A DNA stretch of 63,744 bases, filler included, from Dugesia japonica (taxonomy: Eukaryota), in the NCBI GenBank assembly GCA_001938525.1. It is 6 parts of 6 records of this genome, joined end to end, with 100 filler letters (N's around TTAATTAATTAA, not from the genome) between each part and the next. Parts side by side here need not be neighbours in the genome. Positions count along the whole stretch, not along the records: positions 26,882 to 39,852 come from MQRL01633705.1; 5 more parts are not named here. One strand, written 5' to 3'. The stretch's first letter is position 1; every line of letters begins with the position of its first letter. Under the pieces are notes generated by a model that did not search any database, was not told the origin of the DNA, and saw only the letters and a list, made by a program, of their open reading frames with translations. A program made the position numbers and the translations under genes. Below are positions 23,500-58,850 of this stretch, one piece after another.

Positions 23500-26400
23500 A
23501 AATTGCCCAGATATTTAAAAATCTGTGAATCACTCTTACACCCCCTCTCTTTAAAATTCTTTTTAATCTTTTTCACATTTTTTCAATCATCCTGCCTTCT
23601 GAACTTTTCAGCAGGTATCATTTTTCATGCATCTGTTTTATCACCTCGTATGGACCTGTCTTTGATCTGCTTTCTTTCTTAATTAGCACCGCGTCTCCAA
23701 CATGAAAATGCATATTTGTTGGTGTCAACTCTATATAATCTTTATTCTTTTCTCCATTATTAAACCATCTTTCTCTATGTATCTTCTTACCGAATATCAC
23801 TTATGCTGAACTTATCCCCAAAGTCTTCTGGCTTGTTGAATTAAGTGTATATTCAATTTCTGGTATTAACTCTGCCCAATTTATATTCTTTTTATCTTTT
23901 AATGTTGCATTGATGAAATCTGTGATCATTCTGAATTGACGTTCTACTATTCTGTTGGCATTATGATGATATTGACTTGAAAATCAAATCATTATATTCA
24001 TTGAATGTGTTATCTTTTTAAAGGCTTTTGATTCAAAGATCTTCGCACAATCTACATGTATCTCTTTTGGAGCAACAAATCTCAGTATACATTTATAGAT
24101 AATCGTTTTCTTTATTGATTTCTCATCTCGTTTAACTAGGGCTATTAAGCATATGTATCTGCTAAATTTATCTATTATGGCACATATATATCTTTTTCTT
24201 TCTAAGGTTTCTTGGAATGGCCCATAGATATCAATATAAATACTCTCAAACGGTTCATTAGCCTTTACTTTATTTTGTTTTCGTTAGTGAATCTTTATGT
24301 AACGGAACTTGATAATATGCATTACTCAAATCCACCGTACTAAAATATCTTGCACAACTCAAATTGTCTAGAATTTACTTTACATTAGGCTTCGGAAATG
24401 CCTTTCTTTTTGTGATTGCATTTAGTTTTCTAAAATCTAAACATAATCTAACGTCTTTCCGTTCTTTTTCTAAACACATATTAACGAAGGGTTTCATTGC
24501 AAATTGCACTTCCTAATAATGCCATTATTAAATAAATTCTTGATTGCTTCATCTATCTTAATGCATTGGTTGTTTCCATGGTTTTCTATTTATTGGTTTT
24601 CTATCTGTGATTATTTGATGTTCTGTCACTTTTCTTTTACCAATATCCCAGTTGTCTGCCATGAATACTCCTTTATGAATCATTATAAAGTTTTCTAAAT
24701 ACTCATTTAGCTTGTTAATCAATATTTTATTGCTTTCTGTACTCTCATCCGTTGTATTGCGTCTATACTTTGCTTCTATATTACAAAGAGACATTGTTTT
24801 TCCTCGCATTTAGTTTCTCTCAGGAGTTGGAATCCAAACTGTTTCTGTAATTATATTCCTCCTATTAGATCTGGATGTATCTATTTCATCACAATGAATT
24901 TAATAGTTTCGCTTTTATTCTCGAATTTTACTTCTACCTTTATCGTACCTCCGATTTTGAGTAGACTATTATTGTAGACTATTAAATTTTCTTCACATTT
25001 TAATATATTGACTTCACTCAATCTTTCCAAAATTCACAAACTTATCCCATTAACTCCTGCTCCAGTGTCTAACAAGCCATCAACTTTTAAGCCTTGTATT
25101 TCAACTTTTATAATTGGTCTACCTTGCATCTTGTCATAACTTATCTCTTGTCGCTTTATCTCTTCTATCGTCAGAAGTTCACTGTCGCCTTCTCCATTTA
25201 TATCATTGATCATCTCTGGTTGGTCTCTAATAAATTCTTTCTTTACAAACTTGTAAACGTTTTCTTTTAGATCATTGTAATCATCTACTCGGTTATCTTC
25301 CTTTCTTATATTTATATAATTATTTTACTACTTTTCCTTTTATTAATAATACTGCAATCTTTTGGGATACTTAATTCAACTTTCCGACAATCTTAACTTC
25401 GGCCGGAGCTTGGCCATTTGAGTATTCATCTTGATAATTATTTGACCCATTATTACAATAGTGAGCTTTGTCTTCTCTACATGTCTGATTTTTCTCATTT
25501 TCCTCAATTAAATTAACTTGACTTTCTTTCCTTCTTGTGTAATTATTTCTATTGTTCAAATAATATCTTTGTTTGCCATTTCCGAATTCATTTCTGGACT
25601 GTTTATTTTTATTCTAATAACTAAACTGTCTGTTCATATTTGTCCTCTGTGTAGTGTCCTTTCTTGTTGCATCTTGAAAAACTACCTTTATTACAGTTTC
25701 TTCTTAAGTGTTGTTCAGATCCAGAAGCATTTTTTACTTTCTTGACAATTTCTGCTTACATGAACTTTTTTGTTACAAGTCCAGCACGTGATTTTTCGTC
25801 TTTCCTTGTTAATGTTCTGTTATATTCCTTCATTACGACTCTTACTGAAATTTCCTTGTTCTGAACTGCATCTCTGTAGTTACAAACTACATTGATTTTT
25901 TTAGTTTTAACTTCGTCTTTTATGCCTTTCCTCTCTTTTATTGCTTTAAATACATCTTTGACTTATTCAATTTTTCCTGATTTGATCTTATGTTTAATCT
26001 TTGCAACTATTCATTATTATCTCCTTTTTTAAGTCATCTTTGTTTCATAACTCTTCTACCAAGCCTTCAATCTTCTTCTTATAGATACTTATATGCTCTA
26101 CATTCCTTCGATAATTTAGAGCTTCCTTCATATGTTTAATCATTGTTGATGGCTTAAAGAAAGTCTTTCTTTATTCCATATAGATAACGAAATTTTGTTG
26201 TCTCCAAAATATATTTTACGACATCATTGCCCATTTCGAAAATTCCAGGGTTCATTGGTTCTTTAAGCATATCCAATGATGCGTTGGTCGCTATATTAGT
26301 TAAATTTACAACCTTAGAACTCTCCATAAATTTGGATTTATTATTACAAGATTTTTGATTAAGACAATAATGATGATGAATAATCCATAGTATTCAAACA
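23500..26400 (-). mobile_element. Gypsy LTR retrotransposon family B, internally deleted (gag, protease, RT start, integrase, PPT)
   Basis: LLDTGA at ~25060; FMADNWDIG RT start; integrase with GPY motif (KTGPYEVIK); PPT aaagagagggggTGT at ~23540. Confidence 0.85.
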
Positions 26401-26881: not shown

Positions 26882-28110
26882 CACTAATTACATCACTAAT
26901 CGGGGGGGGGGTTCACTGAATGTGTGCTGGCTATTACTCCTACTATCTATCTACTAACATAATCAGAGATGGTTTACGCTGTTTCCAATAAATTTTGCTT
27001 CCACCACTATTTTTCATCGGTGACATCTATATTCAGTATCGAGAGATTCACTTCGGGTATGATTTTATAATTTCTATAGAAGAGTTTCTTATTAACTTAT
27101 TAGACTTATTTCTAATATATTATTCAAATAATGAATTAATTCGATCATATATTTATTATAACCAACACAATATACTGTGATAATGAAAATTCATAAATCA
27201 TTACAAAATTAAACAATGTTACTCACTAGTTAAAGGAATTCTGCAACTTGAAAAAATAACAATGAATTGGTAAGATTTTCCTTGATTCTGCGGTCATCAC
27301 TAAAATCAAAATTTTCTTCCTTTAGAGTGTGAGTCTAACACTTAAAACTTTCCTGAGAATTGGTTCTGAAAATTTTTTGTATAGCCGTTCACAAGTGAAA
27401 TGAAAACTTTTTTAGGGTAATTTCGCTAAGTTTTCGGGGGGCTTTTATAGGATTTTCTTTACAACTCGACTCTTTTTACATTGGGTGCCATTTTTATTTT
27501 CTGGTTTGCCGTTTCTAATTGGTACCAGGTCTAAAATTGTTACGATTTCTGATCGCCTAATTGGTGCCTATTTTTAGGACACCCTGTGATTTTTTTAGCT
27601 TTATCTTTTGTTTATTTTCTGGCCTTTCATTGGCCAGTTCTTTAAAATTCTTTCCGGACCCTTCTAATAACGGTACTTTTTTTTAGTTAGAAAAATCTAT
27701 TGCAGCATGCTGTTCTGCATCCAAATCTTCTTTCCGGACTTCTTTCGATTTTTCTAAGCGGGGAAAATCGTCATTGACTGATTTTCTTGTAATTTAACTT
27801 CTTTTTTCCGATAAAATTAATTATATCCCATATCTTCTGATTTTAATTAATAACAATTATCCCGTTTTTCAATGATAAATTTTAATTTTCCTCATTATAG
27901 TTATTGAATCTAAACCTTGTTGTGGTAATATATTTAGCCGTTTATTACTTAATCATTTTCAGCTCTTCTTGAATTATTTAATATTGGTTAATTATTGAAA
28001 TGCGGTTTTCTTATTAATTAATCTGATCGAATAGTTTCCTTCTCTTCTTCTACACCCGTGTTTGGGCCCCTGAAAGTATTGTATCCATGATCAAGTGTTT
28101 CACCCCAACA
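26882..28110 (-). mobile_element. TGTTGGGG-element copy 1 (5' end, promoter and leader; runs off the scaffold end)
   Basis: Minus strand begins TGTTGGGGTGAAACAC at 28110; CCAAT boxes, TATAAAA at ~27445, donor A|GTGAGT at 27227/27226. Confidence 0.65.
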
Positions 28111-31100
28111 ATATTCTTTAGTATCTCAGTGCTTGCGTACGTGTATTCTTTTGAAACAGAAATACATTGCATGAAAATGAGACATTGAATATTGTCTATA
28201 ATTTTCCACGCAAATTATAAATTTTATCACCTCTCTTGAAGCATTCGTTTTTTAACTATAATAATTCCCTTTTTTATCAAAGGGATGATTGAAGAATAAA
28301 AAATAAAAACCAATAAACAACTAGTGGTAGTTTAATTTTTTAAATATTTCAACTGTATATTATTAATATCGCTTAATCGCAAAACTGACAGTACAATGAC
28401 TTAGTTATACAAATGTTTTGTTTGCATATCGATAGTGACGATTGGGGAGTCTAAAGAAATAAGTAACTAATGGTATGTAACTTGATTTTGGTGTCAGACC
28501 TAGATTGTAAAGATAAGACTTTTAAAAATTAAGACACCTGATAATTAACGTGTAAGGGGAACATCTCAGCGAAACACCACAGATCTGTTTCATCGGGATG
28601 TTCAATTATGCCATTAGAGAGGATGTGGGCTAAAAGTTGCTTCCTCCAAGCATTACTGTTAAAAGTTCTTATATTGTGTCAGTCAGAGTTTACATTGAGA
28701 ATAGTCTAATGTTGCCAGTGGCCCTCAGTAACGTTATTCTAGCAGCAGTATTAAAAGTAAAAGCCATGCTGGTTCCCTTGATTTTACTGAGAGGGGCGGC
28801 TCAATAGTCGATCGGCCAGATACGCATAACGATCATATCATCCTATTTATTAAAAATTAGAGCCACATACCATAATAATGATACACATATAGCGTGATAA
28901 TAATGCTAATAATAATGTTAATCAATATAATAATTCTAATGATAATATTAGGAATAATAATAATGAGATTACTAATAATATTAATAAATAATACTAATAA
29001 TTTTAACTTGGTGGAAAGTTTCATTATATTCACTCATAATATCACTACATCCATAATCACGGAGGTAATATATTGTCAGAAATTATTATATTTAATTGAA
29101 ATGATTCTACTATCTGAAATCACGACAGGTAATTATGTGAACTGCATCGTTCAAATTTAATGTATAGACCTGACATTTCCACACGGAATCTATTCTTAGT
29201 AATGCTATCAATCCCGTTTGACTCATGGATATTGGTCGTAATCATTTTAATGTTAACATTTAATAAAGTAATAATGTCGATAACAGAAGATAGATACTCG
29301 TACTTATTGTGGTGATCTTAAATCATGATATGGGTAAAAATCATATTCATCTCAGTGATTGCATTACCAATGTATGTGATGCCTATCGTCTAAATAAACG
29401 AATATCAATGCATGAGTCACCAGAGAGGGTTATTTCCATAATGGGCAGGACAATACAAACTACTGAAACACACGTCTCAATTGATCACTACTAATGTTGT
29501 TAACCAATTTGTTTAGTGATAGTGATGCCGATAATTCAGATAAGGATCGTACCTGTTGAATAACAATATTGATGTAGAACATTAACGGCGAACAGGTGTC
29601 ATGGTGATAGTGACACACCCAATAATGTGATTGCATCTCTCTTTATATTGCAAGTATTTTCACTGATGAATTATTGTGAGTATGTAGCACCTGAGGTGAT
29701 TCATAAATTGTCAGTGTCCGAAGTGAGGTGTGTATTCATTTAGATGGTAATTTTCTGGACTTGCTATGGCTTACGATCGATAGAGTGATATATATACTGT
29801 CGAAGTGAATTATCGGTGTTGTTACTTTATGTGTGATGCTACTCGGTTGCTGTTTGGAACAGAAGTTTTTGTTTGTTACTACTGTACAGGGTTCGTGAAT
29901 AGATAAGTACATTGATCACCTGACATTGGATACTGGCATTACACATTTTTAAACAATAGACAGTTTACATAGAAGAAATTTTTTATTAACGAACAATATA
30001 ACAATATGACACAAATAACCAAATNAAAATCACTACTCACTTCTTTATAATTATTTTCTGCAACGGGTTGAACAATTATTAATCGATTTCCACTGAATTA
30101 CGAGAGTCTACTATTTAGCTTTAATTAAATTCTGCTGTTTCACTGACTGGGAATTTTCTTCTACAATCACAGAGTTATTTCAACTAAAAATAATTGATGG
30201 TGATTTCTGTCTTACACTTTTCTCGTAGTAATATGTTGCTGACAGTTTTAACACAAATGTTTTCCACTGACAATTAATAGTACACGGTTTTAATAACTTT
30301 AATTCTCACAAATTTTGAGGGTGATATATTGATTTATTTTACTGGTATCCCACCAAATTGAGTTATTGTTTTATAACGTGATTGATATCGAGTAATATCA
30401 GTTTTTAAGTTGTTTTTTCTTCTAAAATTCAGGGGTTTTATATACCCTTTTCCGATGCATCTCGGCACAAATTTTATTGGCTGCTATTTTTAATTTGAAA
30501 TTCTTGTTCTTGATTGGTGTTTGTGCCAAATTTTAGATAATTTTGACAGTTTTGAGGATTTACATTGGTGGCTATTTTTCAGTCATCATGTGATCTGTTG
30601 TTCTTTGTTTTATTTTTATTTCTTGGACTGTTATTGGCCCATTTTTTTAAACCTTGTGGTGGTCTTTCTGATGGTGACAGGATTTTCTTATTTCGAAATC
30701 TTACTGCTTCTTAACCTTTTCTTTTCAGATTTTCTTGTTATGAGTCCGTGTGATTCTTCTGAGTGGAGTTATCCTTGAGAAACCAATTTTGGACTAATTT
30801 AAATTCATTTTTGTTCCAAAATAATTAATATTTTTTTCGATAATTAAATATTTTTCCAATAATCATTTTTCCTATTTTAATATTTATTTAATATTTTTCT
30901 TTAATCATTAGCACTGAAGAGGGTTAATTTAGTTTATCTACCGACTTGTATCCCTTTTTCTTTTTCAATTGTTATATTTTTAATCATTCGTAATTGTTTC
31001 AATTATTTTCTTATCGGGAAAAATATTGTACTTTTCGCTGCATTTACTTATTTTTAATTGACTTTCTTTACAACTCCTTTCTTCCTGATTTTACGTTCTC

Positions 31101-31150
31101 GGCCACCTGGGCCTTTTTCTTCTATATCATTCAGGTGTTTCACCCCAACA
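28111..31150 (-). mobile_element. TGTTGGGG-element copy 2 (5' ~3 kb, interrupted by copy 1)
   Basis: Begins TGTTGGGGTGAAACAC at 31150; TATATAAA at ~30440; donor A|GTGAGT at 30041/30040; 28550-28650 encodes LLAHILSNGIIEHPDETDLWCFAEMFPL, a paralog of 33760-33840. Confidence 0.7.
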
Positions 31151-31899
31151 TTATTATTATTATTTTTAGTGTTATTATAATTACTATTAACATTAGTAGC
31201 ATTATTATTATTACGATGATTATTATAGTTGCTATTATCATTATTAAGGTTACAAATATTGCCATACGATCATTANAAATATAATTAACGATGTTATTAT
31301 TGTTACGAATATTGTCAGTGTATGCGCCACTACTAATATCATAATTTGGCTTCTTGTTATAAGTGTTGGGGTAAAACGCCCGTTTAAAAAAGAAAAATAA
31401 GGCCAAGAAAACCCAAATCAACAAAAGAACGGCAGGACCATTACAGTTACCAATAATGAAATGCAGAAGATAAAGCGTGAANNNNNNNNNNNNNNNNNNN
31501 NNNNNNNNNNNNNNNNNNNNNNNNNNNNNNNATGCAGAAGATAAAGCGTGAAATAACCATTGGAAAAAGAACGAAATAAACTTGGAGATAGATACGAAGA
31601 ACCGGGTAACATAAAACTAAAATACATCAGTATTGGGAATTAAAAGAAATTATCCAATTCATAATAAAAATCAAGAAAATCATTAGGGGAGAATAATTAA
31701 TTAACAGAAAAAATATTAATTAATTTGGAAATAAGAAGAAGTAAAATTAGTCGAAAATCCGTTTTACCCGAAAACCTCCGTTCAGGAAAGTCAGAGAGAA
31801 TCCGGGTAAGAAAATCCAGAAAGAAAATCGTAAGAAGCATTAGAATTTGTTAAGAAGAAAATCCTACCACCATCCGGAAGGTTGNNNNNNNNNTTTCTT

Positions 31900-32383
31900 G
31901 ATCGGGCCAATAAGAAACCTAAAAATAAAAATAAAACAAAGACACAATTATCATGTGTCATTCCAAAAAAACCCACCAATTGCGGCTCCAAAACTCTGAA
32001 AATATTTTAGAGAATTGGTACTAGAGCCAATAGGAAGCCTAAAATTCCAGTTAAAAATAACCAGCGAATCTGTACAAGGTTGGAGTGTAAAGAAAATTCA
32101 TATATAAGGAATCATGAAATTAACAGAAAAGGTAGCATCCAAAATAAATTTTATTAAGCCTTTACAAGGAACACTGTTTAATATTCGTTATAATTCAAAA
32201 GAAGAAGCCCAGCAGAATTTTTACCGCAAANNNNNNNNNNNNNNNNNNNNNNNNNNTCAGTTATCGCGCATCGGAAAAACAGAAAGTATAACTCTCGTTA
32301 TCAACTGACCAGGAAAATAATTTCTTTGCCTCTTGTGGTTAACAACTGTTGCAGAAATTCCTATTGAAAATTCTACAGTAAGT
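31900..32383 (+). promoter_or_regulatory. Pol II promoter (three CCAAT boxes, TATA) and leader exon ending at a splice donor
   Basis: CCAAT at ~31906, 31976 and 32026; TATATAA at 32101; A|GTAAGT at 32377/32378; same layout in both minus-strand copies. Confidence 0.6.
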
Positions 32384-33688
32384 GTTTGTCATGTAATTTG
32401 GATTTAATATAAATTACAAGTTGAATGTGATGCATTTTTATATTTTAATTAATATTTTAATATACAATTACATTCAATAACATCTAAAATGTTTTTGTTT
32501 TCCAATTTGTAGTCGAACAAATGTATTTGGGTAGCATGATCCTGACCATACGATCTACAAATTAAAAGATCTGGTGAATTTAAGTCGATTTTATACATCA
32601 ATCATTTTTCCTGCTCCCAATAGAACATACATCATCAATAAATCAATAATGCATTCGTAGTGATAAATGATTTACAAAATAATAATAGGAATCGATGAAC
32701 CAGTTAGCAGAATAAGTTAGTTGCACATACACACCTACTAGTATTTAAACCCCAGTGTGTATTGCTAGCTGCTGACTTGTTTACTAATGCTAAGCAACCA
32801 CATTCGTTAATTTTTTTAAAAACTTAAAATTTGCCTAATTAAATAACTTTTATTATGTCGAAGAAATATAAGTTTGTTACACGGGAAAATGTGAAACTTC
32901 ATCGCCCTTCATAAATTATCTAAAGTGTGGTTGTTATTATATTCTTAAAATGATCAATATCTTTATTATTAGCATTATGAATCTTTGCGATTTCGATGAT
33001 AGCATTATGAATACTATTATTATTAATCGTGTTATTGCTATTATTATCCCTACTAGCCGTGATGGAAGTATCATTTTTAATATTACGATTCGTATGATTA
33101 TTATTCTTATTATTAACATTCTCACACCGATTATTCCACTTATTGCGCACAAAATCATTACCTTTACTCCTAGGAATCCTTATTACTAGTGTATCAATAT
33201 GGTTTAGACCCCAGAAAATGATCGACAATGTTAATTAATATTATTCAGGGGATTGTTGTCCTTGATTGTGATAAGTCTTCATATTACTAGTAAGGGACAG
33301 TGGTAACTATTCTTTGTAGCGGATTGAAATCACGGTTAATAATCGAGTTTATGACTGCTATGGTCAATAAATTTTTTTTGGCTGGCGTTATGATGACTAT
33401 TCCAAGCATTAAGATGAGATGAGTGGTGTCAGTATTATTATCATCAGTATTATATTTGCTTTTAGGGCCATGATTAACAATCGCTTTATGAACAGTCTTT
33501 TTTAAATGATATACTGTTAACAGTAATATTTCTTTCCATGGTCTCCTGAATGCCGCTAATGGGACCTCAGTGTGGAAAATAGCAGTACAGATCACACTGT
33601 TAGACATTCTTATTGCGTATTTTTTAGTCAGACTGAGAGAACCTCAATTCTAAATATAGACTTTTGGTATTTGTCATCTTTCTAGTTA

Positions 33689-33894
33689 ATGCCGGCAGAA
33701 CTGAACCATACCTTACAGTGGATCAGACAACAGCGACGGACCACTAGAATGAAACAATTAATAGCCCATCTATTGACTCGGGGTAGAATAGAGCATCCTG
33801 ACGAAACCGACCTTCAATGTTTCGCGAGATGTTTCCCCTAGTTGAACAAGATGATTTGGACAAAGAACGAGAAAACGAATGGCATAGTGCTTAA
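33689..33894 (+). pseudogene. Element ORF-0, small unknown protein with a 1-bp frameshift
   Basis: Acceptor ttctag then ATG; LIAHLLTRGRIEHPDETDLQCF(A)EMFPL is conserved in the minus-strand paralog. Confidence 0.6.
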
Positions 33895-34045
33895 CCTACG
33901 TCGGGTGAATCTTATCCCTCACGTCACCTTTAAACTAGTTGTGGTTGTATCATCCCTGGTGTTGTTATTTTCTTTAATCTATATAAATTGTCTTTAGTGT
34001 TATCTTAATAATCATTATAAAGAATTTTTTTGTTTTTCACGAGAA

Positions 34046-34396
34046 ATGGACTCAGTTTGGGAACAGACCATAGACCGCAGAACTCGCTGGGTGGTTTTTA
34101 GACGCCACCATAACCCGCATAATAGAGATGCCGGTATCTTGATGGATCAGTCTAACCTGGAACCGGTTGAGGCTACAGTGGCTCGTATCCAGAGCTTCGG
34201 CGAGAGGATACGATTCCAGCAGTGGAACGGGCCCGTACGCAACCATGCCACATCCTTTAACTACCAACCACCGGCTCCACCCCCTGCAGTACAGGCTTTT
34301 ATTTCTAATTTACTCTGGGGCGTGAGAGATCCCACCGGGGTAGTCGATACAGAGAATACCGCTCCCGTCAACGATATGGAAGGGGATTCACAATAA
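34046..34396 (+). CDS. Element ORF-A, 116 aa unknown protein
   Basis: Intact ORF after a polypyrimidine-AG, AATAAA overlapping the stop; paralog at 36201 shares W...DRR....F.R..NPHNR.AG.L.D..NL. Confidence 0.75.
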   Translation: MDSVWEQTIDRRTRWVVFRRHHNPHNRDAGILMDQSNLEPVEATVARIQSFGERIRFQQWNGPVRNHATSFNYQPPAPPPAVQAFISNLLWGVRDPTGVVDTENTAPVNDMEGDSQ

Positions 34397-34580
34397 AACC
34401 GTTATTTTGAGCAAAACGATAACTAAATCACTGTTTTCTTTAAAAATAAACGAGTCTAGTTAAAAGTTTTATTTATTTTTTTTTGTTGTTGTTTTATTTC
34501 TTTTTACGGTAATATCAGAATGTACGGTTGAGTGTTGAGTGTACCATTAATAACGCATAACGATTAATTACTATTTGTAG

Positions 34581-34939
34581 TGCATTTCTCTCTGAATCGT
34601 CTTTCAGCCCCGACTAAAAAGATGCGAGAAACTAGTGAGGACCAAGAGATGACTTGGGACCTCTACCGTCTTGCAAAGTGGCGGTGGGAAGCTGAGACGG
34701 CAACAGCTGAGGCTAAGGTCACATGCTATAAACGAAAATGTCTGGCTTTTAAAGCAGAAGTAGAAGCGACCCAGAACCAAGAGAGAATATGGAAATTACA
34801 AGTTGAATCCTTCACCGAAATCATTAAGTCGTATCAAGAGCGTGAGAATAAACTAGTAGGAAACATATTGAAATTGAGGACAGCTATACCTTTGACCCCA
34901 CTCATGGTCGATAAAGGAACACAGACCAACCGCTCCTGA
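34581..34939 (+). CDS. Element ORF-B, ~119 aa coiled-coil-like protein starting at AG|TG
   Basis: tttgtag|TG CAT TTC; AATAAA at 34969; decayed paralog at 36831-37180. Confidence 0.7.
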
Positions 34940-35060
34940 GTTATCATTATTGACCTTTGATTAACGTTAATAAATTGTCTTTATTTTGTATAAATTTTTC
35001 TTTGTTTTGTTTTCCGATCTTAAATTTAGAGTTTACCGACTTAACTATAATTTTCTTTAG

Positions 35061-35413
35061 TGCCACGGATTGTATTATCAACTAAACTGCAGAGATGCCA
35101 TCGTATCATGCACCGTCTGTTATTGGAACGGCACTTAAAACGTAAAACAGACCGGGCTCTTCTTAAACATTTGGCCCAGAGGGATAAATTGATAAAAACG
35201 TTGGATTTAATTGTAAAGAAACAGAGTGATTTAGCGTCCCAAACCAAGTCCCTGGAAGCAGAGACCAAACAACTGTTACAACGAAAAATAGAATTTCTGA
35301 AACAGTACATAGCCGACCTTTCCCGCCAGATAGGTAATCCAACTTGGGTCCAGTGGGACGATCATGATGACGTCGCCACCTTTAATTTTTCGTTAACGGA
35401 CCCAGCTCAGTGA
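35061..35413 (+). CDS. Element ORF-C, ~117 aa coiled-coil-like protein starting at AG|TG
   Basis: ttctttag|TG CCA CGG; AATAAA at 35455; paralog at 37298 (tgtag|TG CCG AGA). Confidence 0.7.
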
Positions 35414-35702
35414 TTAGATCCAGGAGCTTTGAATCTGTTGTAAATGTTTTATAAAATAAATAGCGTATCGTTAATGGTGTTTCTCTTCTAATAAATTAAA
35501 AAAGAAAATATATAAGGAAAATAATGAACCCGAATACAAAGGTTTGTGGGCGTGCACCTCCCATTAAGCGAGGGGTCAACCACCATAAGCTGAATACCTA
35601 ACCTGGGGGCGTTAGGTCAAATTCTTGAAAGGGTTCCCCTGAGGGCTGTTTTTCCCCAGCCACAAATATCTTCGTCCAACTCAGGTGGGACCCCAACATA
35701 AG

Positions 35703-37902
35703 TACGAATTAAGGCGAGCATGTTGCATTTAGAAGACGAGTTGACCTACAGTGAATATTTTCTATTTCCTCCTGCAGGCACACACTGTTCTCAGCTTTTA
35801 AATTTTTTAAATTATTATGTCAACGATAAACATTCTATTAACTAAGAAATAGATTTTTTCATGTCCGACATTTTAACAAGGACGCTAAAAATAATTCGGT
35901 AGGAGCGGAAACGTTCTCGAAAAAAAGCTATTAATCGGCCATTTATTCTTCCACGATGTTGTCCTGTATCCAGTCGAGTTAGATCTCTAATGCTTCAAGG
36001 AATTATATCCCTTTCCCTAGGAAGTTGACTTGGACATGGAACCATGACTACATTTTGGTGTTTCACTTTTGGTTTCTCTGTAAAATAAATAATCTCATAT
36101 TTATACTTCATTTCTCTTTTCATTAATGTGCATTGCTATAATTGCTGTCAAATCAATGAATAACTCATTTCGACTTATTAATTTTCTTTTAGATAAAAAA
36201 ATGGAACATAAGTGGGAAGTGCATTTAGACCGGCGTATCGGAAGATTAATATTCAAACGATATAAGAACCCCCATAACCGAAACGCTGGGGTGTTGGTAG
36301 ACCGTTTTAATCTGTCTTCAGAACAGGCCGAGGACGAGTGACAATGGGACGCCACCAAGCGTCGTGCTTTTTATGAATGGAATAGTCCCAATCGAGAACG
36401 AGAGGTATATCATTCCACTACGGCTTTTCCACCGGTTAACAGTGAAGAGCTTCGTACCACCAGTGAGTGACACGAAGGCCCTTCTGTGATTTCAGTTTCT
36501 ACCATTTTTCTCCAGATTGGGCGAATTCGTAAATAATACACTTTAAGAGATACGAAATAGGAGAATGGCGGTAGCGCAGAAAATTTGGTTTTAGGTGATA
36601 ATGACGAAACTATATAGCAATTCGTACCTCTTGATGACCACTTTTAGTGTTAATAAATTATTTTATTATTTTCAAGCATCTTTTGTTAACTCTCGATCTT
36701 AATCACAATAATTAAATGGTTTATCAAGCACTAAGTAATTGGTTATGATGAGGTTTCAACTTTAATGAAACCGACTAATTATTCATATTCTCATTGTTTA
36801 CATATAATATTTTAAATACATTTTTTCCTGTGCATTCTGCCCTAAATCGTTCTGTGGCTCCCACTAAAAAGGTGCGAGAAAAAAGTGAGGACATGGAAAT
36901 GACGTGGGATTATATCGTCTCGCGAAACGTCGATGAGAGGCAGACACAGTTACTGCCGAATGTAAGGTAAAAAGGTATAAAAGAAAATGCAAAGCGTTTT
37001 GCAAAGAAGCAGAGGCCTCCCATACCCAAGAGAGGCTTTGGAAAACTTAAATTAAATCATTAGATGAAATTATCCGGTCCCTTCATGACCGAGAAAATAA
37101 ACTGGTCGCAGATATTTTGGCGTTAGGGAAAGCCATGCCACTAGAACCACTAATGGTGGATAAATCCACACAAACTTCATGCCCTTAACTTGATGTTAAT
37201 CTTTTTGATAATGAAAATACATTGTTCCGTTATAACGGGCCATTCATGTTTTTTCAATTGAATGAGTTTTTTAGTTATTTAATTATTTCTTTTGTAGTGC
37301 CGAGAATCAGACTTCCTATCAGTTTACGTCGCTGCCACCGTCTTATTCAAAAATTAATACTTGAGCGTCATATCAAGAGACAAAACGCGCGCTACTACGA
37401 CACCTTTCCCAGCGCAATCGGTTAATTAAGAAGTTAGATGTCATAGTCAAAAAGCAAGGCGACTTGGCCAATCAAACAAAAAAAGTACTCCAGCACAAAA
37501 TCGAGTTTCTAGAGCAATACATTGTTGACCTTGCCAGTCGTCTCGAGCAAGAGACATGGACTCGCTGAAACAGCGAGAACGACGAAACCGCTTTCGGCTT
37601 CATCCCTGAAGAGCCAACCCAGTGGTTAGACCCGGGTGCTCTGGATTTTATGTATTCAATTGGAAATAAATTTTTAATTCTAGTACATTATTAATTCGTT
37701 TTTGATAAATTAAATTATAAGAAAAATAAGGAACCAGAAACTAAAGGTATATGAGTGTGTACTTCAAATAAATTATGGAAGTCAACCGCTCTATACTGAA
37801 AATCTAATTAGGGACATAAGATCAATTCTTGAAAGGGTCCCCTGAGGGCTGTTTTTTCCCCAGCAACACTTTTCTACATCTAACTCAGGTGGGACCCCAA
37901 CA
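35703..37902 (+). mobile_element. TGTTGGGG-element copy 4 (3' half; probable host of the complete copy, continuing at 31151-31363)
   Basis: Decayed ORF-A, B and C paralogs in the same order; same terminal hairpin and CCCCAACA end at 37902. Confidence 0.75.
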
Positions 37903-38313
37903 TTATTATTATAATGAAATCTGCCCCTGAGCCACCGTTCCTGAGAAGAAACCAAAAAATAACCGTTAAATTAAGCGGAAAGAATTTTTTTATTATGAAA
38001 TAAAGCGCTTGAATTGCACGATTAAAGCTAAAATATAGGTGCACGAGTTTTTATGATGCCTTCCTCGCTCTACCATGCACGACTGAAATGACAAGCACAA
38101 AATATTTTCGCTTATTATCACTATCAGTAGAAATATAATTTTATCTTTTACAGTAAATTTAATGATAATCTAACTTTGATAAAATTTATCTTATATTTTA
38201 TTCAGTCTTAATTTAAAATAAATTATCATTGAAAGTATGCTTCACAATTATTTAATCAATTTAATTTTATTATAATATTAAAACTGTTATTCGATTTTAT
38301 CGGAGTTCATTTT

Positions 38314-38660
38314 AGTAAATACTAGTAAGAATAAACACGCGAGTTAAATTATCCAGAGAGATCTTATTGAACGATCAATTGCGTTATCGGGCTGAGTTGA
38401 TCAAATTCCAGAAAGAGCTGCACGAAGCCCAGGAAGAAATTTTCAACTAAAGGGGAAAGTGAGATTGCTACGAAACTGGTTGAGTGGCAATAAGGTAAAG
38501 GAGCTGGCCCTCATGCACAATAATCGAATGTTGCTAGCTATTTCAAAAGTTGCGCAGAATGATAAATTTAGGTATTAGGAAATTTTCGACCACCTTGGCA
38601 GAATTATTAGAAGGATCCAGCCTAGAAGATCGTAACTATAACGGAAAGTGCCATCTAAAG
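38314..38660 (+). pseudogene. Decayed coiled-coil ORF of a related element
   Basis: After ttttag: ELIKFQKELHEAQEE..NKVKELALMHNNRMLL, similar to HKSRELALQQANRLIV at ~50950-51000 (-). Confidence 0.45.
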
Positions 38661-39342
38661 AGAAACTATTTAATTTCATATCCAACTGACTAAAATCGAG
38701 ACAATGTACACAATTACTTCATACAAATTAATGATTTTCAATATTTTTAAAATAATATGATAGTATAACTTTTAAGTTATTATCTGTTTATAATATATTC
38801 CAAGTCACATAAATTTTAGTTTGATCAGAATACAATTCTTAAGGTTTATGGTATATTTCAGTGCGCGTATGTTATTGAGCATTGAGAAACTATAATAACA
38901 ATTTATTTTACGTTTATGAAAAATTATTTTAAAGACTTGGAAAAACAAAATATGTTAACTTCAAATAATAATAATAAAAATTTATTTATCATTTTTCACT
39001 CTACAAATATATTTAAATAAATATATTTAAATTTAAAGCGAAAAACTATTTTTTTTAAAAATTGATAAAATGTAGTCTTCTTAAATTAAAATCATTATTT
39101 TTTTAGTATATTTTAATTCATATTTCGAATTTTAATTGTGTACATAATAAAAATATAATTAAAATATGTTAATCTTAACATTAAAATATTTTAATAAAAC
39201 GTTATTAAGTCAAATTTTTTTCTTAAAAGATATAGTTTTAAAATGCAATTCTAAAGCATTAATTTTTTTAAACTTATGTAAAGCTTGGAAAATTTAAAAT
39301 TGTTTAAAATTACTTATTTTTCAGATATTTTAAAGAATTATT

Positions 39343-39685
39343 ATGACCGATTTTATTGAAACTGGTAACGATACAATTGAAGATATATTTTTAAATCGTC
39401 TTCATACTGTCGATATAAAGAAATATGATTTATATCATTTTGAGGAATTCATGGTTGATGATAGGAAATTTTTATTTCGATTATCTACCAATAAAGATTT
39501 AATGACTGTTGTAACAACAATGAACCAAACTCATATTTTACTCGTTTCAGTTACAACCAACAATGATCACGAAGAAAAATTAAGGAAAATCCACAAATAT
39601 ATTTTACTCAAAGAAACTCAAGGTATAAATTAAGAATTTATAATTATTATGTTTATTTTCGTTATTAGGTTCTGGTGATTCTTGA
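39343..39685 (+). CDS. Small unknown host gene (exons 39343-39622 and 39669-39685)
   Basis: Open frame, a 46-nt GT-AG intron (same size as the RBCK1 short intron), a stop, and a downstream AATAAA. Confidence 0.5.
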
Positions 39686-39852
39686 TAAAAGTCTAAAATC
39701 AATGTAATTAAAATTGCAATGATACTTTGCATTTTGTATTTAATAAAAAGTCTTAATTTTGAAATTCTTAATTTCGTTATGAAGTTCTAGTTACATAATG
39801 TTTATGTAGAGAAATAAATAGTATAAATCGATGGAATTGTTTTTAATTAAAA

Positions 39853-41229: not shown

Positions 41230-44200
41230 TGTTAGTTGAGTTTGGAAAACTCATCGTATCATCAATATCAAAATTCAAATTCATTACTTTGTTTATTTTT
41301 ATTAAAATCAAAACTATAACCAACATTATTTGTATTTCAAACAAATTAAAGTCATGTGCTTTAATTGGTGATCTTTTTTCTAAAATTTAAAAATTAAAAC
41401 GTTTATTTATTAAAATTAATTTTAAAATTTTATTTATTAAAAAATTAAACTTTATTATTCAATAATTATAATTTATCCTTAAATCAATACTTGTTTATTT
41501 AAATTTTTCATCAATAACTTAAATCTCTTTTAACAAAAGATTTTAAAAATAAGATCACCAATCACATAAAAATTTCAACTTGCTTTTAACACTGCTCACA
41601 TCCCTCTTTTTTAAGAAATTTTTTGATCTTCTCTACGTTTCTTTCGAGAAAATGTCCGTTTGTAATTGTCCGGATGTAACGTCTATCATGAATCTTCTTC
41701 TTGATCTTATAGGGTCCTTCATAATGATCTTGGTACTTGTTCCTTGTTTCATCTTTCACCAAGACCTCATCACCAATCTCGAATTGTCCTATGGTTAATA
41801 TTTCTTCCACTTGTTCTTTGTGCACTCTTTGAGAATTGGTTTCATACCATTTTCTCTGCTTATTCTCTTCACAAATACGATTTCAGTAGGGCTTTTACCG
41901 ATAATTTTCTGTTTTGTAGCATTTAAAGTAAATTCTATCTCTGGCAATATATCTGCCCAATCTGAGGTTTTTTTTATGATCTGTTCTGAGAATAAATCTC
42001 TTCTCATATAAGTAATGTTTGAAATGAATACAAAAGTAGTAAATTGCGAGAAATACTTTCCGTGTAGTACAATTTCCTTTCTCATGACTCGTCATTGCGT
42101 GTGACCCATATGCAATTACTGTTTCTTGTCCATTGTTGTCTTTTTGAGATAGTATTGTCCCAATAGTATCGAAACTCGTATCCGAGTCCAAAATAAATCC
42201 TCTATTTATAAATGGAAACATAGTATTGGGGACACCACTAGTGCTTCTTTCATTTCATTAAAAACTTCTTTTAATTCATTCACCCATACAATTTTCTTGT
42301 TACATGTCCCACTACACAGCTGTTCCAACAATCTAGCTTTCTTTGAATAATCTTTAATAAACTTTCAATAGTAATTGTAAATTCCCAAAAAGCTTCTCAT
42401 TTTCTTAACGCAGTTTGGTTTATCGAAGTTCTTAATTGCTTCTATTGTAGTTGGGTCTGTTTTGATACCTTCTTTGCTGATAATGTGTCCCAAAAATTTA
42501 ATCTCCTTTCACATGAATTGACATTCTCCAGATAAACTCAGACCAGCCTTTTTAATTTCTGTTAATATTTTATTGATTATTTCGTAATGTTGCTTCTCTT
42601 TTTCGGTGAAAATGAGAATATCATCTAGATAAACCATTGCTCCATTTATTTTTCCGATTAATTTATTCATCATTTCCTGGAACGTACCTGGTGCTGTTGC
42701 AATTCCAAAAAGCATTCTAATTAAACAAAATTGCCCTTGTTTGGTCGAAAAAGCCTTCTTTTCTTGAGAATTTTCACTGATTTCCACTTGGTAGTATACA
42801 TTTCCCAAGTCTATTGAGCTACATTACTGCGTACCTTCCAATAAATCTAGCATTTAGTCCACATTTGGCATAGGAAAACTTGTCTTTCTGTTATTGCATT
42901 GAGCTGTCTAAAGTCTAAGCATAATTGTATGTATTTTCCTATTTCCAAACACAGATTAATGGCGAACTCCATTGCAAATTACACCTCCGGATGAAACCAT
43001 TATCATATATATTCTTGATTGCCTTTTCAATCTTTTCCTATAGATTCGTCCGTTGGGGATATGGTTTTATGTTGATTTGATCTCCTTTAGTGATTATTTG
43101 ATGTTTCGTTAAGTTTGTGCATCCAATGTCCCATTTATCCGCCATAAATACATCCTCATTATTCTGAATAATCACATTCAATCTATGATCTTTGTTCATT
43201 TCTAGAATCTTCATTGTATGTTTCAATCGTTCACCCGTCTGTATTTATCTTCCAAATTTTGCCTCGATGATTATTGACGTCTACATTGCATTTTGTCTGA
43301 AGATGATACCCAAAATTATTCTGAAATTCCACTCCACCAATTAGATCTGGTATTAATTTCTCTACTATTATAAATGTTACTTCCTTGCACACTTCTGAAA
43401 CTACAACTTTGGCACGTATCTTTGCAATCGTCTCCAATGAGCTGTTAATCACGCAATGCAATTGTTCCTTGCTTTTATTTAACATTGTTTCTCCGAGTCT
43501 ATTAAAGCCTTTCATGCTCCTCACATTTATTCTTGCTCCCGTATCCAACAATCAATCAAACTGTTCATCATTTATCATCACTGAAATGCTAGGTCTCCAT
43601 TGCATTTTATCATACGAAATTTCTGCATTCTGTTTTTCTTCAATTATTTCTATCATTTCTGCTTTGTTATCTTCCGCACCATTTAAACTTTCTTATTTTA
43701 GGAATCTGTAAACCTTTACTCACTTTACTCGTCTCATTCCATTTCTTGCCCTCTTGAGGATATTCAAACGGTATCTCGTTTAATGGATGGCTCCGACCAA
43801 CTCCTCTACTGACGGAACCCTGCCTTTTGGGTATTCTCTTCTTGGATTTTCATTTTCTATTATGCTATCAGAAAGTCCTTCTTCATTCTCATTATCAAAT
43901 ACTTCTCGAATGGCATGAATTGGTTTTGTCCGACTACAATCTTTTATTTGTTGTCCGCTTCTAAAGTTGTATCTTCTCTCTTCTAGTCTAGGTTTATTAA
44001 TGTTCGAATAACATTCTTGTGCTCTGTGACCCGGTCTTTTACATCTACCACATATTATTCCTGTGCACATCCTTCTGACATGACCAATCTTACCACACCC
44101 AAAACATTTTGGTGGTTTCTTGTCTGGNNNNNNNNNNNNNNNNNNNNNNNNNNNNNNNNNNNNNNNNNNNNNNNNNNNNNNNNGACACTCTCTTTTTGTA

Positions 44201-45169
44201 TGCCCATAACTCTGGCATGTCCAACACTGTGATTCTGTTCTTTTTGTAACTCTCTCAATATTTTGTCTCTTTTCTCCGAAACGTTCTCCGAAAAGTTCTC
44301 TGAAACATTTTCCGCGTGTTACACTAGCGTAACTCTTTACTACATTAATAGGTTCTCTTCTTTCTATTTTTTCAACTAATGTTAACGTTTCTTTTAAATC
44401 TTCTACTTTCTCAAGTTTTTGCATGATTATCTTTTCTTCTGCTTTTTGACTATTTGCACAAATTAATAGCATTTTTTATAAGAGTTTTTCTTTCGTCAGC
44501 TCTCCATTTGTTAAATATTTATCAACCAAATCTTCCACTTTTTTAAATATACCTCAAGTTCTTCATCACCACGTTGATAGCTTACAAGATTTTCTAAATC
44601 TTTTATTATGTCTCTTTTGCTCTCAAAAGCTAATCGCAATCTCTCTCGATATCCATCAGCTTTCTTCAATGTCTTTACATATGCTTCCATTAAATCTTCA
44701 TGAAGCATACATGTTACCCAACGTTCTTGATCTTTCTTAGCAATGATGTTCTTTACATCAAAGTATATTTCACACCGTTTTTTAAACTTCTCTAGATAAT
44801 CGCCTCTGCATAAAATTTTTGGCAACAATCTTTCTGTGATTGCATCAGTGTTTACCGCTGCCACAATATTAGTTAAGTTTGGAAAACTCGTCGTATCATC
44901 AATATCAAAGTTCGAATTCATTACAACGCTTTATTAAAATCAAAACTATAACCAACATTATTTGTTAATCAAACAAATTAAAACCATGTGCTTTAATTGG
45001 TGATCTTTTTTCTAAAATTTAAAAATTGAAACTTTTATTTATTAAAAATCTAAACTTTATTATTCAATAATTTTAATTTTTCCTTAAACCAATATTTGTT
45101 TATTTAAATTTTTCATCAATAATTTAAATCTCTCCTTTGAACAAAAGATTTTAAAAATAAGATCACCAA
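41230..45169 (-). mobile_element. Gypsy family A element with two LTRs; RNase H-to-integrase deletion
   Basis: 3' LTR 41230-41600 (TG..CA, PPT aaagaggga); 5' LTR ~44869-45169 truncated; gag with CCHC knuckles, LDTGA, YLDD, RNase H (DTS..RTDH), integrase C-terminal GPY. Confidence 0.95.
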
Positions 45170-49620: not shown

Positions 49621-50499
49621 ACTAATTAATCAATTTATTAAAAATTGTTGGTTTAAAAAGCCGGAAAAAGAAAAACAATAGTTATTATAAGAGATGTTAG
49701 GGTGCTAAGTAGTGGTTGCTTAATAGTGTTATGTAATATTGTAATTTAGACTTTACTGTATGAAAAATAGAATTACAAAGTAAACATTTTAAATATTACT
49801 TAAAATTGAAATAAAAATGAACAATTAAAACAAGTATATTTTAAATAAAATTATAAATAATTTAAGTTACTAAATATAGTAATTTTTATTACTGAAATTA
49901 GCTAAATAATTTTTATCAAATAACGTCACATCTATTTTTAAGTGTGATTTGTTATAGGAATAAATTAATTAGTTTTATTTTTGATGGACAACACATAATT
50001 AAATGATGGTGCCATTTAATTTTGATTTTATGACGAGGTAAACGTTTGTTGTTTATGATAAATTCACTTAAGAAACATTTTTTTGGTTTGTTTATTTAAA
50101 AAATTTTAATTTCAAAAATTTTGATAAATAATTTGGTTTGCAAAAATTTTATTTTGATATTTAATATTTTTTATTGAATATTCAGTTCATTGGCATCCAT
50201 TAATTTCCTGCAAAGAACGAAATCCTGGTTGGATAGTTGATCCTATATTTCTGACTAAGTCAATGTTGTGAATTTAAAGAAAAACAGTAGAACAAAAAAA
50301 TTATCTTTTGTCATTATATTGAGGAGATTCCAGTTAGTTCCACCAAGTAAATAACTTCGCAGTTTAATCGTGGTAATGTATTACTGTGATATTCTNTTTT
50401 AAGCTTAAATAGGAGCACGAAAAGCTTGGGATAACCCCACATATAAAAATTTATAAGCTGCCATATTTTATTGACTTACTTGTAAATCTGTTATATTTA

Positions 50500-52010
50500 A
50501 TAAAAGTTTATAAAATGAGTTGGGATTCTAGGCTTTTGATGTTCACTTAATTTACTTTCTCGCTTGACTTTCATCCATATAATTACGGATTGAATCATCT
50601 GTTTAAGAGGCAACCTAAAGTCCCCAAGTATTTATGACACCTCTGCGTCATGCTCCCTTCTCCCAGGTTCAGCGAAACTTTGTGGTATCGCGACTTACAC
50701 TGTTTGAAATTATGCTTACGGACAACATTTATTTCGCTCAGTTAATCACTTCTCAATGTTTACTACTGGCTATACATAACCAACTGATCTATAATAATAA
50801 GACACAACGACAAAATTTTATTATTCAATGTTCACGCGTCCAAATCCACCACTTGAGTATCGTCCATCGCGTTTTCCTTCTCGGGCTAAGTACTCCACAG
50901 GGTTCGGAGAGTAGCAAAATTTGCAGCTTCATTCACTGCGTACCATTTAATCAAATCTACTATGAGCCGATTTGCCTGCTGTAGTGCTAACTCCCGTGAC
51001 TTATGCTGGATAGGCCGAGTTTAAGACTTAGTGACCACTTGGTTGAGCCGTAAAACTTATGCCTTCAATTCGTGCTTTTTTTTGCTTCTATTTTATCGCT
51101 ATGTCCACCAAATCTCTATTTTCAACTGAACTCTCCCTATGATTAGACACTAAATAAATAACCAGTAATTTTCATTATCATTTCACATTTAATAAATGAT
51201 TATTTTCGAATTATAAAGATGATCACATTAGTTTTGCTTATAAGTTTCTGAATAACATTAAAAATAATAGTATTTTCTATTTTTTTTTGTTTACAACTGC
51301 CTCTNNNNNNNNNNNNGTGCAGAACAACAAAAAAAAGAAAAATTTGTTAACTGTGACATACGTATCACCAAAAATCTTGTAAAACCATATCCAATTTTTG
51401 TATCGATTCAATCTTTACTATCATCGGGTACCAAACCTTTGTAAGATCCTTGGTGTCGTCCATCAACTGTGATAACAATCGCTCTTCCATCCGTTCTATC
51501 AGCTCTCAGTGCTCCATAATCTGTTTGGTTGACAGTGCTATGTCCTCAATCATCGCCTGCATTTCTTGTCGTAGTTGCGCGAGCTTAATTTCTGGTGTCT
51601 GGTTAGTAGTTTGGAAAGCATCGAACTTCTGTTTCAATCCACGATTTATGTTAATCAACTCTTGTTGGCCACGTCTAATCTCGGCTTTATTTTTCTCGTT
51701 GATGGTCTTCTTCTCCTCAAGCAGCTCCACTGTAAACACCCAGGGGATTTTATATAATCCTTCACCGTTGTTGCTTACCATCAACGGAAATAATAGTTGT
51801 ATCATTACTCCAGATCATCCAGAAATAATACAATTAATAGATTAGCAAATAGGTTCAAAATAACAGCTACAAGAAATTTCTCTTTTTATAACACTGCAAA
51901 ATAATTTTTAATGACAATTAAAATTTAGCTAGCAACTATCGTTTTAAAAAAAAGGTTTGTGAATGATACATACAACTAGTTTATATACTATCCGCGTTTC
52001 TGATTGGCGT
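50500..52010 (-). mobile_element. Relative of the 27-38 kb elements: promoter plus a series of decayed acceptor-led ORFs
   Basis: CCAAT..TATATAAA on the minus strand at ~51980-52008; coiled-coil ORF 51380-51805; tttag|TG ORF 51149-50832 followed by AATAAA. Confidence 0.45.
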
Positions 52011-58810: not shown

Positions 58811-58850
58811 AAATACTATTTATATAATAAATATTTTTAGTTTAATAATA

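Follow-up and report, generated by a model that had tools for sequence, protein, structure and literature searches.

An LTR-like insertion with four small ORFs and a predicted leader that may complete split start codons

Organization of the insertion and its relatives

The window, that is, the whole stretch of 63,744 nucleotides (filler included) that was analysed, is composed of AT-rich, animal-type scaffolds. It carries a complete insertion, U1, nested among three older relatives, U0, U2 and U3 (Table 1), the four units being 61–67% identical. U1 is the only one of the four in which both ends and the target-site duplication (TSD) can be assessed. Its termini are TGTTGGGGT (left) and ACCCCAACA (right), with TG...CA ends, and the duplicated TAAG has a background frequency of 0.004 per site. 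The terminal inverted repeat is perfect over 9 bp and extends loosely to about 35–40 bp; the loose repeat to about 40 bp has P values of 0.01–0.3 across six pairings, and inverted similarity past 40 bp is inconsistent (P<0.05 in 1 of 12 pairings). A hairpin at the right end of U1 does not surpass shuffled sequences (z -0.96 to +0.22), and Rfam gives 0 matches in 26882–39852. Over its last 1.1 kb, U0 is 61% identical to U1; it ends with CCCCAACA. It carries broken copies of the four U1 ORFs (D', A', B', C'), with stops in A' and B' and frame breaks near 36909 and 37376. Note that the sequence-only reading of this DNA contained neither the limits of the units, nor their TSD-flanked LTR-like context, nor the gypsy env precedent and the downstream ATGs presented below.

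Table 1. Features of U1 and of its relatives (positions in the window; in motifs, a slash marks the exon boundary)
Feature	Position	Strand	Remarks
U3, 5' part of relative	26882..28110	-	inserted in U2; promoter, leader; cut by scaffold end
U2, 5' part of relative	28111..31150	-	promoter, leader, donor, ORF-D homologue
Left TSD	31360..31363	+	TAAG (4 bp), flanks U1
U1, complete 4,335-bp insertion	31364..35698	+	both ends and TSD
Predicted promoter	31907..32107	+	CCAAT at 31907, 31976, 32027; TATA at 32101
Predicted leader, ATG-free	32129..32377	+	start inferred as TATA+28; ends in A
Donor GTAAGT	32378..32383	+	only GTRAGT in U1
Predicted first intron	32378..33685	+	ATT-rich tract near 33000-33150
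ORF-D, 50 aa	33689..33841	+	own ATG 3 nt past acceptor (AG ends 33685)
ORF-A, 116 aa, orphan	34046..34396	+	own ATG 2 nt past acceptor (AG ends 34043)
Candidate 8-nt micro-exon	34519..34526	+	has ATG; phase 1; GTTGAG donor is weak; missing in U0
ORF-B	34581..34939	+	TG directly after AG; 119 aa if upstream A completes ATG
Phase-1 donor A/GTGAGG in ORF-B	34635..34640	+	also in U0 (36885)
ORF-C, orphan	35061..35413	+	TG directly after AG; 117 aa if A completes ATG
Right-end block	35490..35698	+	77% to U0; AATAAA just before second TATA-like box (35511)
Right TSD	35699..35702	+	TAAG (4 bp), flanks U1
U0, 3' part of older relative	35703..37902	+	U1 inserted into it

The CCAAT boxes and TATA of U1 align with those found in U2 and U3. 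The U1 leader includes 26 N (32231–32256) and a conserved GTTGCAGAA at 32348, and the U2 leader is 376 nt long and ATG-free. Leaders of the three 5' copies (U1, U2, U3) contain 1 ATG in 820 nt versus 10.9 expected; the U2 leader alone has 0 versus 7.2 expected, with 0 of 2000 shuffles as low. Each of these copies has exactly one GTRAGT, a single strong donor. Each time it follows an A, as the sequence-only reading had described: CTACA/GTAAGT at 32377/8 in U1, and A/GTGAGT at 30041 in U2 and 27227 in U3, both on the minus strand. An A directly precedes GTRAGT in 19 of the 37 window sites, and with this background of about 51% the terminal A in three of three leaders is weak when taken alone (P about 0.13). 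In U1 and U2, in-frame stops immediately precede the terminal A of the leader. A coding micro-exon from GTTGCAG to the donor (23, 17 and 14 nt, all 2 mod 3) was discarded, as two of the three copies have in-frame stops.

The four ORFs of U1 have no Pfam match above cut-off, integrase and transposase included. ORF-D has homologues in U2 (about 28556–28642, minus) and U0. No ORF-B homologue is found in 5.8 billion proteins, nor in viral or metagenome contigs; its search against PDB sequences yields one match only (E 0.48) and the Atlas only unnamed clusters with low recognition. ORF-C has 0 matches in 1.84 billion proteins, and ORF-A has no Atlas match and a single-sequence model with a pLDDT of 40.6. 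Exact look-ups for homologues found 0 of 6, and scans for family DNA motifs had no match in viral or metagenome contigs, nor in genome contigs. ORF-B and ORF-C are both coiled-coil-like and mutually unrelated (P=0.37). The carboxyl terminus of ORF-B carries DKGTQT (34910–34927; DKSTQT in U0), which resembles an LC8 anchor, and host LC8 is predicted to dimerise the protein through this conserved TQT anchor. The products are likely accessory regulators, including two coiled-coil proteins. AATAAA signals are found at 34392 and 34445 for ORF-A, at 34969 for ORF-B, and at 35455 and 35490 for ORF-C. Within 130 nt of ORF-D, U1 contains no AATAAA-like signal, and at this exon the proposed choice among poly(A) sites is not confirmed.

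Coding constraint at the acceptors and proposed source of the start codons

At the AG/TG acceptors 34581 and 35061, and at 37298 in U0, the frame completed by one upstream base is open for 118, 116 and 41 codons, respectively, while the remaining frames are open for 4–25 codons only; on these points the sequence-only reading was accurate, as it was in stating that ORF-C lacks a usable upstream ATG. A TG follows 59 of the 707 pyrimidine-rich YAG sites (8%), and in-frame stops lie 3–4 codons upstream of both U1 acceptors. A further site proposed to share the arrangement, 51149 (minus strand), does have AG/TG but its frame closes after 19 further codons. It was rejected as a paralogue: there is no blastn match to U1, tblastx E values are at least 0.09, and its protein likeness to ORF-B/-C is not convincing (P values of 0.05–0.9).

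In-frame ATGs are present further downstream, at 34622 and 34649 in ORF-B and at 35108 in ORF-C. The first of each ORF reads GTG and ATT, respectively, in U0. The codons from the acceptor to this first ATG define amino-terminal extensions (13+15 codons) that can be compared with the older copy U0: 18 of the 28 residues are identical, 10 codons are synonymous, and pN/pS is 0.31, versus 0.30 for the ORF-B body. The 28 pseudo-codons upstream of the acceptors have 1 identical, 0 synonymous and a pN/pS of 1.12. Purifying selection acts from the acceptors onwards, and since the extensions evolve like coding DNA, translation should start at or before the acceptor. It is very probable that translation of ORF-B and ORF-C begins at the acceptor. 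Their AUG would have its simplest source in the terminal A of the leader, a proposal that is somewhat favoured.

Some observations count against a split start codon. The spliced AUG of U1 would carry T at -3; the ATG at 34649 (ORF-B codon 24) is in frame and kept in U0; and ORF-B' in U0 reads cctg/TG at 36831, where the AG is lost and GTG kept. The loss of one base there is expected because ORF-B' is dead, with stops and a frame break. As to conservation across copies, which had been put forward as a check, the terminal A is found in 3/3 leaders, and AG/TG is kept at C' and not at B'. With flatworm SL trans-splicing, an SL that has AUG as its last three bases would bring frame 0 into use from the acceptor on. 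This source of the AUG was discarded: frame 0 closes after 4 codons in ORF-B and 25 in ORF-C and is the wrong frame.

In the mechanism proposed here, the predicted CCAAT/TATA promoter of U1 would direct synthesis of a single AUG-free leader, likely spliced to alternative 3' exons. We infer the transcription start, the splicing and the use of alternative poly(A) sites. The AUG of ORF-B and ORF-C would be composed of the last A of the leader and of their own first UG, while ORF-D and ORF-A would bring their own AUG 2–3 nt past the acceptor. Splicing would select the exon and so yield one protein per mRNA, leaving ORF-B and ORF-C silent on unspliced or read-through RNA, for instance genomic RNA. 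The full account, a solo LTR with a single promoter and leader, alternative exons and A/TG starts, is plausible but falls a little short of being favoured.

Nature of the insertion and alternative readings

U1 has several hallmarks of Ty3/gypsy solo LTRs: a TGTNR start, which is common to gypsy LTRs (PMC2836005, in the passages cited), a short inverted repeat, a duplication within the 4–6 bp range, and a Pol II promoter and poly(A) signal inside the repeat, both as motifs only. Against this assignment, no gag-pol, PBS or PPT adjoins any end in the window. U1 is nevertheless probably a solo LTR of a large retrotransposon, and the parent element is likely a large, Burro-like Ty3/gypsy element. 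The sense strand of the element is presumed, as is its LTR status.

ORF-B and ORF-C could be internal or terminal exons of the same element fed by a phase-1 coding exon, and any upstream phase-1 exon would fit coding conservation from the acceptor. Its possible sources, taken jointly, make an unlikely alternative: the micro-exon at 34519–34526, the front of ORF-B through the donor at 34635, or else an internal-region donor of the parent element joined to the 3' LTR. The micro-exon, already raised as a caveat in the sequence-only reading, exists as a candidate and has an ATG and its own pyrimidine-rich acceptor; U0 lacks its weak GTTGAG donor, and other copies show G>T at 34526, the base with which it ends. 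Donor 34635 is in phase 1, present in U0, and could link the ORF-B front in frame to ORF-C. The exon that it closes ends in A, so that ATG would be made anyway, and constraint on the protein may be what keeps this donor conserved. Only weak phase-1 donors are found in ORF-D and ORF-A. It is distinctly improbable that ORF-B and ORF-C start instead at ATGs further downstream or at the genomic GTG, formed by TG and the G of the AG, in RNAs that use the upstream acceptors 34518 and 35029, AG/TG being then partly coincidental. Pyrimidine-rich AGs do exist upstream, ATG 34649 is conserved in U0, and ORF-B of U0 keeps GTG without AG, but base loss is expected in this dead ORF. Downstream ATGs leave the pN/pS of 0.31 in the extensions unexplained, and GUG, which lies in a poor context, would be needed in two unrelated ORFs, a less parsimonious solution. 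Chance AG/TG in decaying repeats devoid of an expression programme is very improbable: acceptors were picked post hoc, the YAG-TG background is 8% and the example at 51149 fails, but codon-level constraint from the acceptors, ATG-depleted leaders and conserved promoter boxes speak against it.

The proposed expression from a common leader could also hold in a unit that is not an LTR but a non-autonomous Ginger2-like DNA transposon or an integrase-mobilised (retroviral-type) satellite, which is rather unlikely. Ginger2/Tdd elements are described in the cited passages of PMC2836005 as having TGTNR ends, a 4-bp TSD and AT-rich targets and as tolerating introns; the TGT...ACA ends, duplication and AT-rich target of U1 match this description. 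The loose inverted repeat to about 40 bp agrees with it, and a DNA element easily explains retained introns. However, terminal inverted repeats measure 40–270 bp in Ginger1/Ginger2 (45–260 bp in Ginger2) and only 9 bp are perfect in U1, which, unlike Ginger2/Tdd, carries neither a long repeat nor a transposase. The latter is absent from the complete, TSD-bounded unit, as it would be from any non-autonomous copy. Selection on four ORFs across subfamilies would better fit LTRs of autonomous parents.

Known systems and sequencing runs

A split start codon alone is not new. The initiator of env in Drosophila gypsy and springer-subclade errantiviruses is made by splicing, as AT/G (PMC2585583 and bioRxiv 2023.08.03.551782, cited passages). 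The model for U1 shares with gypsy env an LTR element and an ORF whose initiator exists only at the junction. They differ in that gypsy env involves AT/G and one internal gene, whereas in U1 the split would be A/TG and serve two unrelated orphan ORFs, the terminal repeat itself containing the donor and every acceptor. The errantivirus hallmark of AT/G joined to an F-type env ORF is not seen in U1 (where the junction would be A/TG and the ORFs are orphans of 117–119 aa), which leaves the comparison of how the two work unaffected.

Burro/GYPSM1 elements, giant Ty3/gypsy elements found in planarians, are described with multi-kb LTRs, a total of >30 kb and up to 25 kb of internal region (PMC6431247), and with thousands of copies, accessory ORFs and an AT-rich host (PMC6431247, PMC11410931; cited passages). 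U1, with 4,335 bp, is in the range of multi-kb LTRs, the likeness to Burro being by description in these passages, not by sequence. The cited part of PMC6431247 mentions no ORFs inside Burro LTRs, while U1 has four. If the host is a planarian, the U1 model bears on Burro-type elements, for which a supporting role in stem cells and regeneration has been reported (work cited in PMC13465017). Burro codes for a giant gag-env-pol polyprotein with BIR/BCL2/ankyrin domains; no internal region lies in the window.

MMTV sag, HIV nef and foamy virus bel/bet are accessory genes borne by or overlapping the LTR and expressed from spliced RNA, some of them from a second promoter. They are one gene or a spliced pair with intact AUGs; U1 would have four exons, separate poly(A) signals and an LTR-internal promoter. 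The adenovirus major late unit joins a common non-coding leader to alternative 3' exons and poly(A) sites. It comes from a DNA virus with a lytic cycle, its bodies each carry an AUG of their own, and there is no homology to U1. A multi-gene, alternatively spliced cassette within an LTR was not found in a literature search. That a family of giant invertebrate retrotransposons carries an adenovirus-like multigene unit in each LTR, with the leader donating the A of AUG, is a tentative idea, more doubtful than probable.

If it is true, each of many solo LTRs would form a cassette complete in itself, with orphan genes that modulate the host, among them one for a predicted LC8-binding coiled-coil protein, and only splicing would license their translation. 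LTRs are usually viewed as regulatory DNA with one ORF at most. A repeat in which four selected genes come with introns and with several poly(A) signals has to cross the RNA cycle of the element unspliced; split start codons would neatly keep such genes silent on genomic RNA. Through solo LTRs, working gene cassettes would be spread across the host genome, and annotation that is based on ATGs and masks LTRs would miss them.

In the sequencing runs, neither a junction from 32377 nor a GT..AG joint occurs among the 10 + 15 joints listed for eight of 24 runs, in which RNA cover is scant. Reads 99% alike to U1 number 0 in X3, 3 in X4 and 1 in X7 (raw RNA; 6%, 25% and 25% of the runs read), and read depth stays under 1 on all of ORF-A, -B and -C in the three runs. 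The U1 subfamily is nearly silent there. Contigs of X10, X13 and X17 cover almost only low-complexity sequence, and a pile of raw reads at 34467–34505 is poly(T) noise. X1 and X14 resemble DNA, since both read through the introns in unspliced form. Among the X14 contigs from diverged copies, two regain similarity at 34578 and one at 35055, i.e. at the acceptors. In one X14 contig over the leader, positions -1 and -4 relative to the terminal A are changed; none of the changes listed falls on the A or the GT. These contigs, the coding constraint at the acceptors and the ATG-poor leaders lend partial support to the earlier claim of one promoter and leader with A/TG starts. Raw RNA run X4 shows transcription of a diverged relative, with 22 reads over an ORF-B' stretch and 76 over the right-end motif.

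The insertion that carries the cassette

The window consists of AT-rich scaffolds with N spacers between them, and the putative split-start feature lies on the scaffold at 26882–39852. The donor at 32377 and the acceptors at 34581 and 35061 are all inside a single insertion, U1 (31364–35698), with left end TGTTGGGGT, right end ACCCCAACA and TAAG flanks on both sides. U1 interrupts an older relative, U0, within its ATT-rich intron; the 3' part of U0 extends to 37902. The minus-strand relatives U2 and U3 start at 31150 and 28110, respectively, U3 being nested within U2. Identity among these copies is 61–67%, and many further copies at 80–99% identity are present in contigs of sequencing runs X1 and X14. 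Over 26882–37902 the four relatives form a nested stack, with AT-rich 4-mers (TAAG, TTAT, ATAT) at the insertion points; two of these fall within the ATT-rich intron, which may reflect a preference for self-targeting.

The inverted repeat at the U1 ends is perfect over 9 bp and loose to ~40 bp, past which no consistent signal is seen; it is LTR-like and too short for the Ginger elements outlined in PMC2836005. None of the unit ends within the window has a PBS, PPT or gag-pol beside it, which is expected for solo LTRs, but the LTR class is inferred. The cassette of selected genes is real, and its host element U1 is likely a solo LTR. The U1 family, in the multi-kb size of its putative LTRs, its many copies and its accessory ORFs, is reminiscent of planarian Burro elements (PMC6431247), to which it may belong. 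The cassette possibly occupies the U5 region, a huge LTR U3 region (compare the second TATA-like box at 35511) or a position antisense to gag-pol. This box, near the U1 right end (35490–35520), is directly preceded by AATAAA, and the pair is kept in U0. The arrangement recalls that of the HTLV/BLV LTR.

Coordinates of U1 reading frames, conserved motifs and neighbouring elements
Feature	Position	Strand	Remarks
ORF-D	33689–33841	+	
ORF-A	34046–34396	+	
ORF-B	34581–34939	+	
ORF-C	35061–35413	+	
Conserved GTTGCAGAA	32348–32356; 30064 (-); 27247 (-)		14–23 nt before each donor
ORF-B C-terminal tail, DKGTQT (U1), DKSTQT (U0)	34910–34927; ~37160–37177	+	Shortly after helical part
Polinton/adintovirus-like element	52450–61225	-	polB PF03175, E 1.9e-10; PLA2-like domain PF08398, E 4.8e-08; integrase fragment
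IBR-domain host exon (RBR-type E3 ligase)	3034–3318	+	E 5.5e-05
Ordinary Ty3/gypsy elements (several copies, decayed); Penelope-like endonuclease fragment	11370–13800; 15019–17550; 23984–25324; 41586–44930	-	

Leader, reading frames and the putative split start codon

CCAAT boxes and a TATA box are aligned across U1, U2 and U3. Each copy has exactly one GTRAGT, 14–23 nt 3' of a conserved GTTGCAG; the conserved GTTGCAGAA could be an element of the start site or the acceptor of a non-coding micro-exon, used for instance when a 3' LTR is the splice target. The donor at 32377 and the two minus-strand A|GTGAGT donors are present as the sequence-only reading stated, but of the 37 GTRAGT sites in the window 19 are preceded by A, which makes the conserved terminal A weak by itself. 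One leader contig of X14 differs beside this A and, among the differences listed, not at it. The three leaders (TATA+28 to donor) hold one ATG in 820 nt for 10.9 expected, a depletion that comes mainly from U2 (0 for 7.2; U1, P = 0.09; U3, P = 0.45).

A predicted first intron of ~1.3 kb is followed by four ORFs with a GC content of 43–52% versus 22–33% in between. ORF-D and ORF-A have their own ATG 2–3 nt beyond the acceptor, while ORF-B and ORF-C open with TG. AATAAA is found downstream of ORF-A, ORF-B and ORF-C but not behind ORF-D in U1. ORF-B and ORF-C are unrelated to each other and coiled-coil-like (weak Pfam matches, below cut-off), and protein, viral and metagenome contig searches and exact look-ups yielded no homologues. 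The ORF-B tail DKxTQT is a putative LC8-anchor-like motif; LC8 clients are described with such a TQT anchor and a matching distance from the coiled coil (PMC12017986).

A promoter near 32100 would generate the leader, which would be spliced to one of the four ORF exons; the transcript would be cleaved at the poly(A) site that follows this exon (ORF-D would use that of ORF-A). The AUG of ORF-B and ORF-C would arise only at the splice junction, so that unspliced or read-through RNA could not make these proteins. Adenovirus, MMTV, HIV, foamy virus and the flatworm SL provide comparisons. The AG|TG boundaries at 34581, 35061 and 37298 are confirmed, the long frame being the one that needs a single upstream base. 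Their proposed conservation in paralogues holds at 37298; at the paralogous site of ORF-B the AG is gone.

Both ORF-B and ORF-C have in-frame ATGs downstream of the acceptor, whose use would leave 13 and 15 codons untranslated. Between U1 and U0, 18 of these 28 residues are kept and 10 codons are synonymous; differences by codon position are 10/7/18 (third-position excess, P = 0.02), and the pN/pS of 0.31 is the same as in the ORF-B body (0.30). Immediately upstream of the acceptors, 28 pseudo-codons share one residue (pN/pS 1.12). Where U1 has the first in-frame ATGs of ORF-B and ORF-C, U0 reads GTG and ATT; the ORF-B Met at codon 24 is nevertheless kept. In-frame stops lie 3–4 codons 5' of both U1 acceptors, and in three X14 contigs from diverged copies the similarity returns at 34578 or 35055, at the acceptors. 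Taken together, these observations mean that one base has to come from an exon further upstream. An ATG-free leader with one strong donor makes A|TG the simplest source of the start. Rival suppliers of the base are a candidate micro-exon at 34519–34526, whose donor is weak and which is absent in U0, a phase-1 donor at 34635 for ORF-C, and donors in an internal region outside the window. GUG initiation is a further rival, consistent with the GTG that U0 retains at ORF-B despite the lost AG. Split initiation at ORF-B and ORF-C is, on sequence grounds, moderately favoured.

The start codon of gypsy env is made by splicing, as AT|G (PMC2585583; bioRxiv 2023.08.03.551782) and not as the A|TG proposed for U1. 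The literature found, mostly as titles and abstract openings, mentions no multi-ORF alternatively spliced cassette inside an LTR; ORFs of this kind may already be annotated in Grohme 2018, Lee 2026, the supplements of PMC6431247 or Repbase. PMC8532177, PMC11410931 and PMC13465017 give context only.

Transcription of the family

Eight of 24 listed sequencing runs were compared (raw runs X3, X4 and X7 being 6–25% read) with a junction threshold of 3 reads. No run recorded as RNA contains the stretch. Of the 25 joints listed, not one begins at 32377 or has GT..AG ends; depth over ORF-A, ORF-B and ORF-C is <1 in X3, X4 and X7, so that a junction could not reach the threshold there. X4 reads from a more distant relative cover part of ORF-B', the U0 version of ORF-B (22 reads), and the right-end motif (76), and a 94-nt X10 contig (81% over 34603–34659) extends the ORF-B frame on both sides, stop-free by eye. 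Members of the family must thus be transcribed somewhere. Short motifs at 35619–35657 and 37066–37106 match many high-depth X1 contigs (32 and 41, respectively) and X4 RNA reads, which points to a more distant subfamily, both abundant and transcribed, that has ORF-B and the right end in common with U1.

Neighbouring elements

Other scaffolds carry gypsy RT and gag, the IBR exon, which has no near homologue by protein search, and a Polinton-type polB/PLA2/integrase cluster. This content marks the host as an animal, and its base composition hints at a planarian. The Penelope-like fragment (15019–15540) was recognised by eye, without a Pfam match. The site at 51149, earlier thought to repeat the AG|TG arrangement, meets a stop after 19 codons and bears no likeness to the U1 unit. 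It falls in a separate decayed unit (50400–52440, minus strand) of similar look, with an AAT-rich stretch, GTGAGT at 52038, GC-richer blocks and a coiled-coil-like frame (~51370–51814) broken by one stop. This unit has no detectable homology to U1 and may represent a distant family built along the same lines. The Polinton/adintovirus-like element is inserted in an AAT-rich tract, and an inverted AGTAGTAAGGGAATGACG pair (~52448 and ~52640) is a candidate for its terminus.
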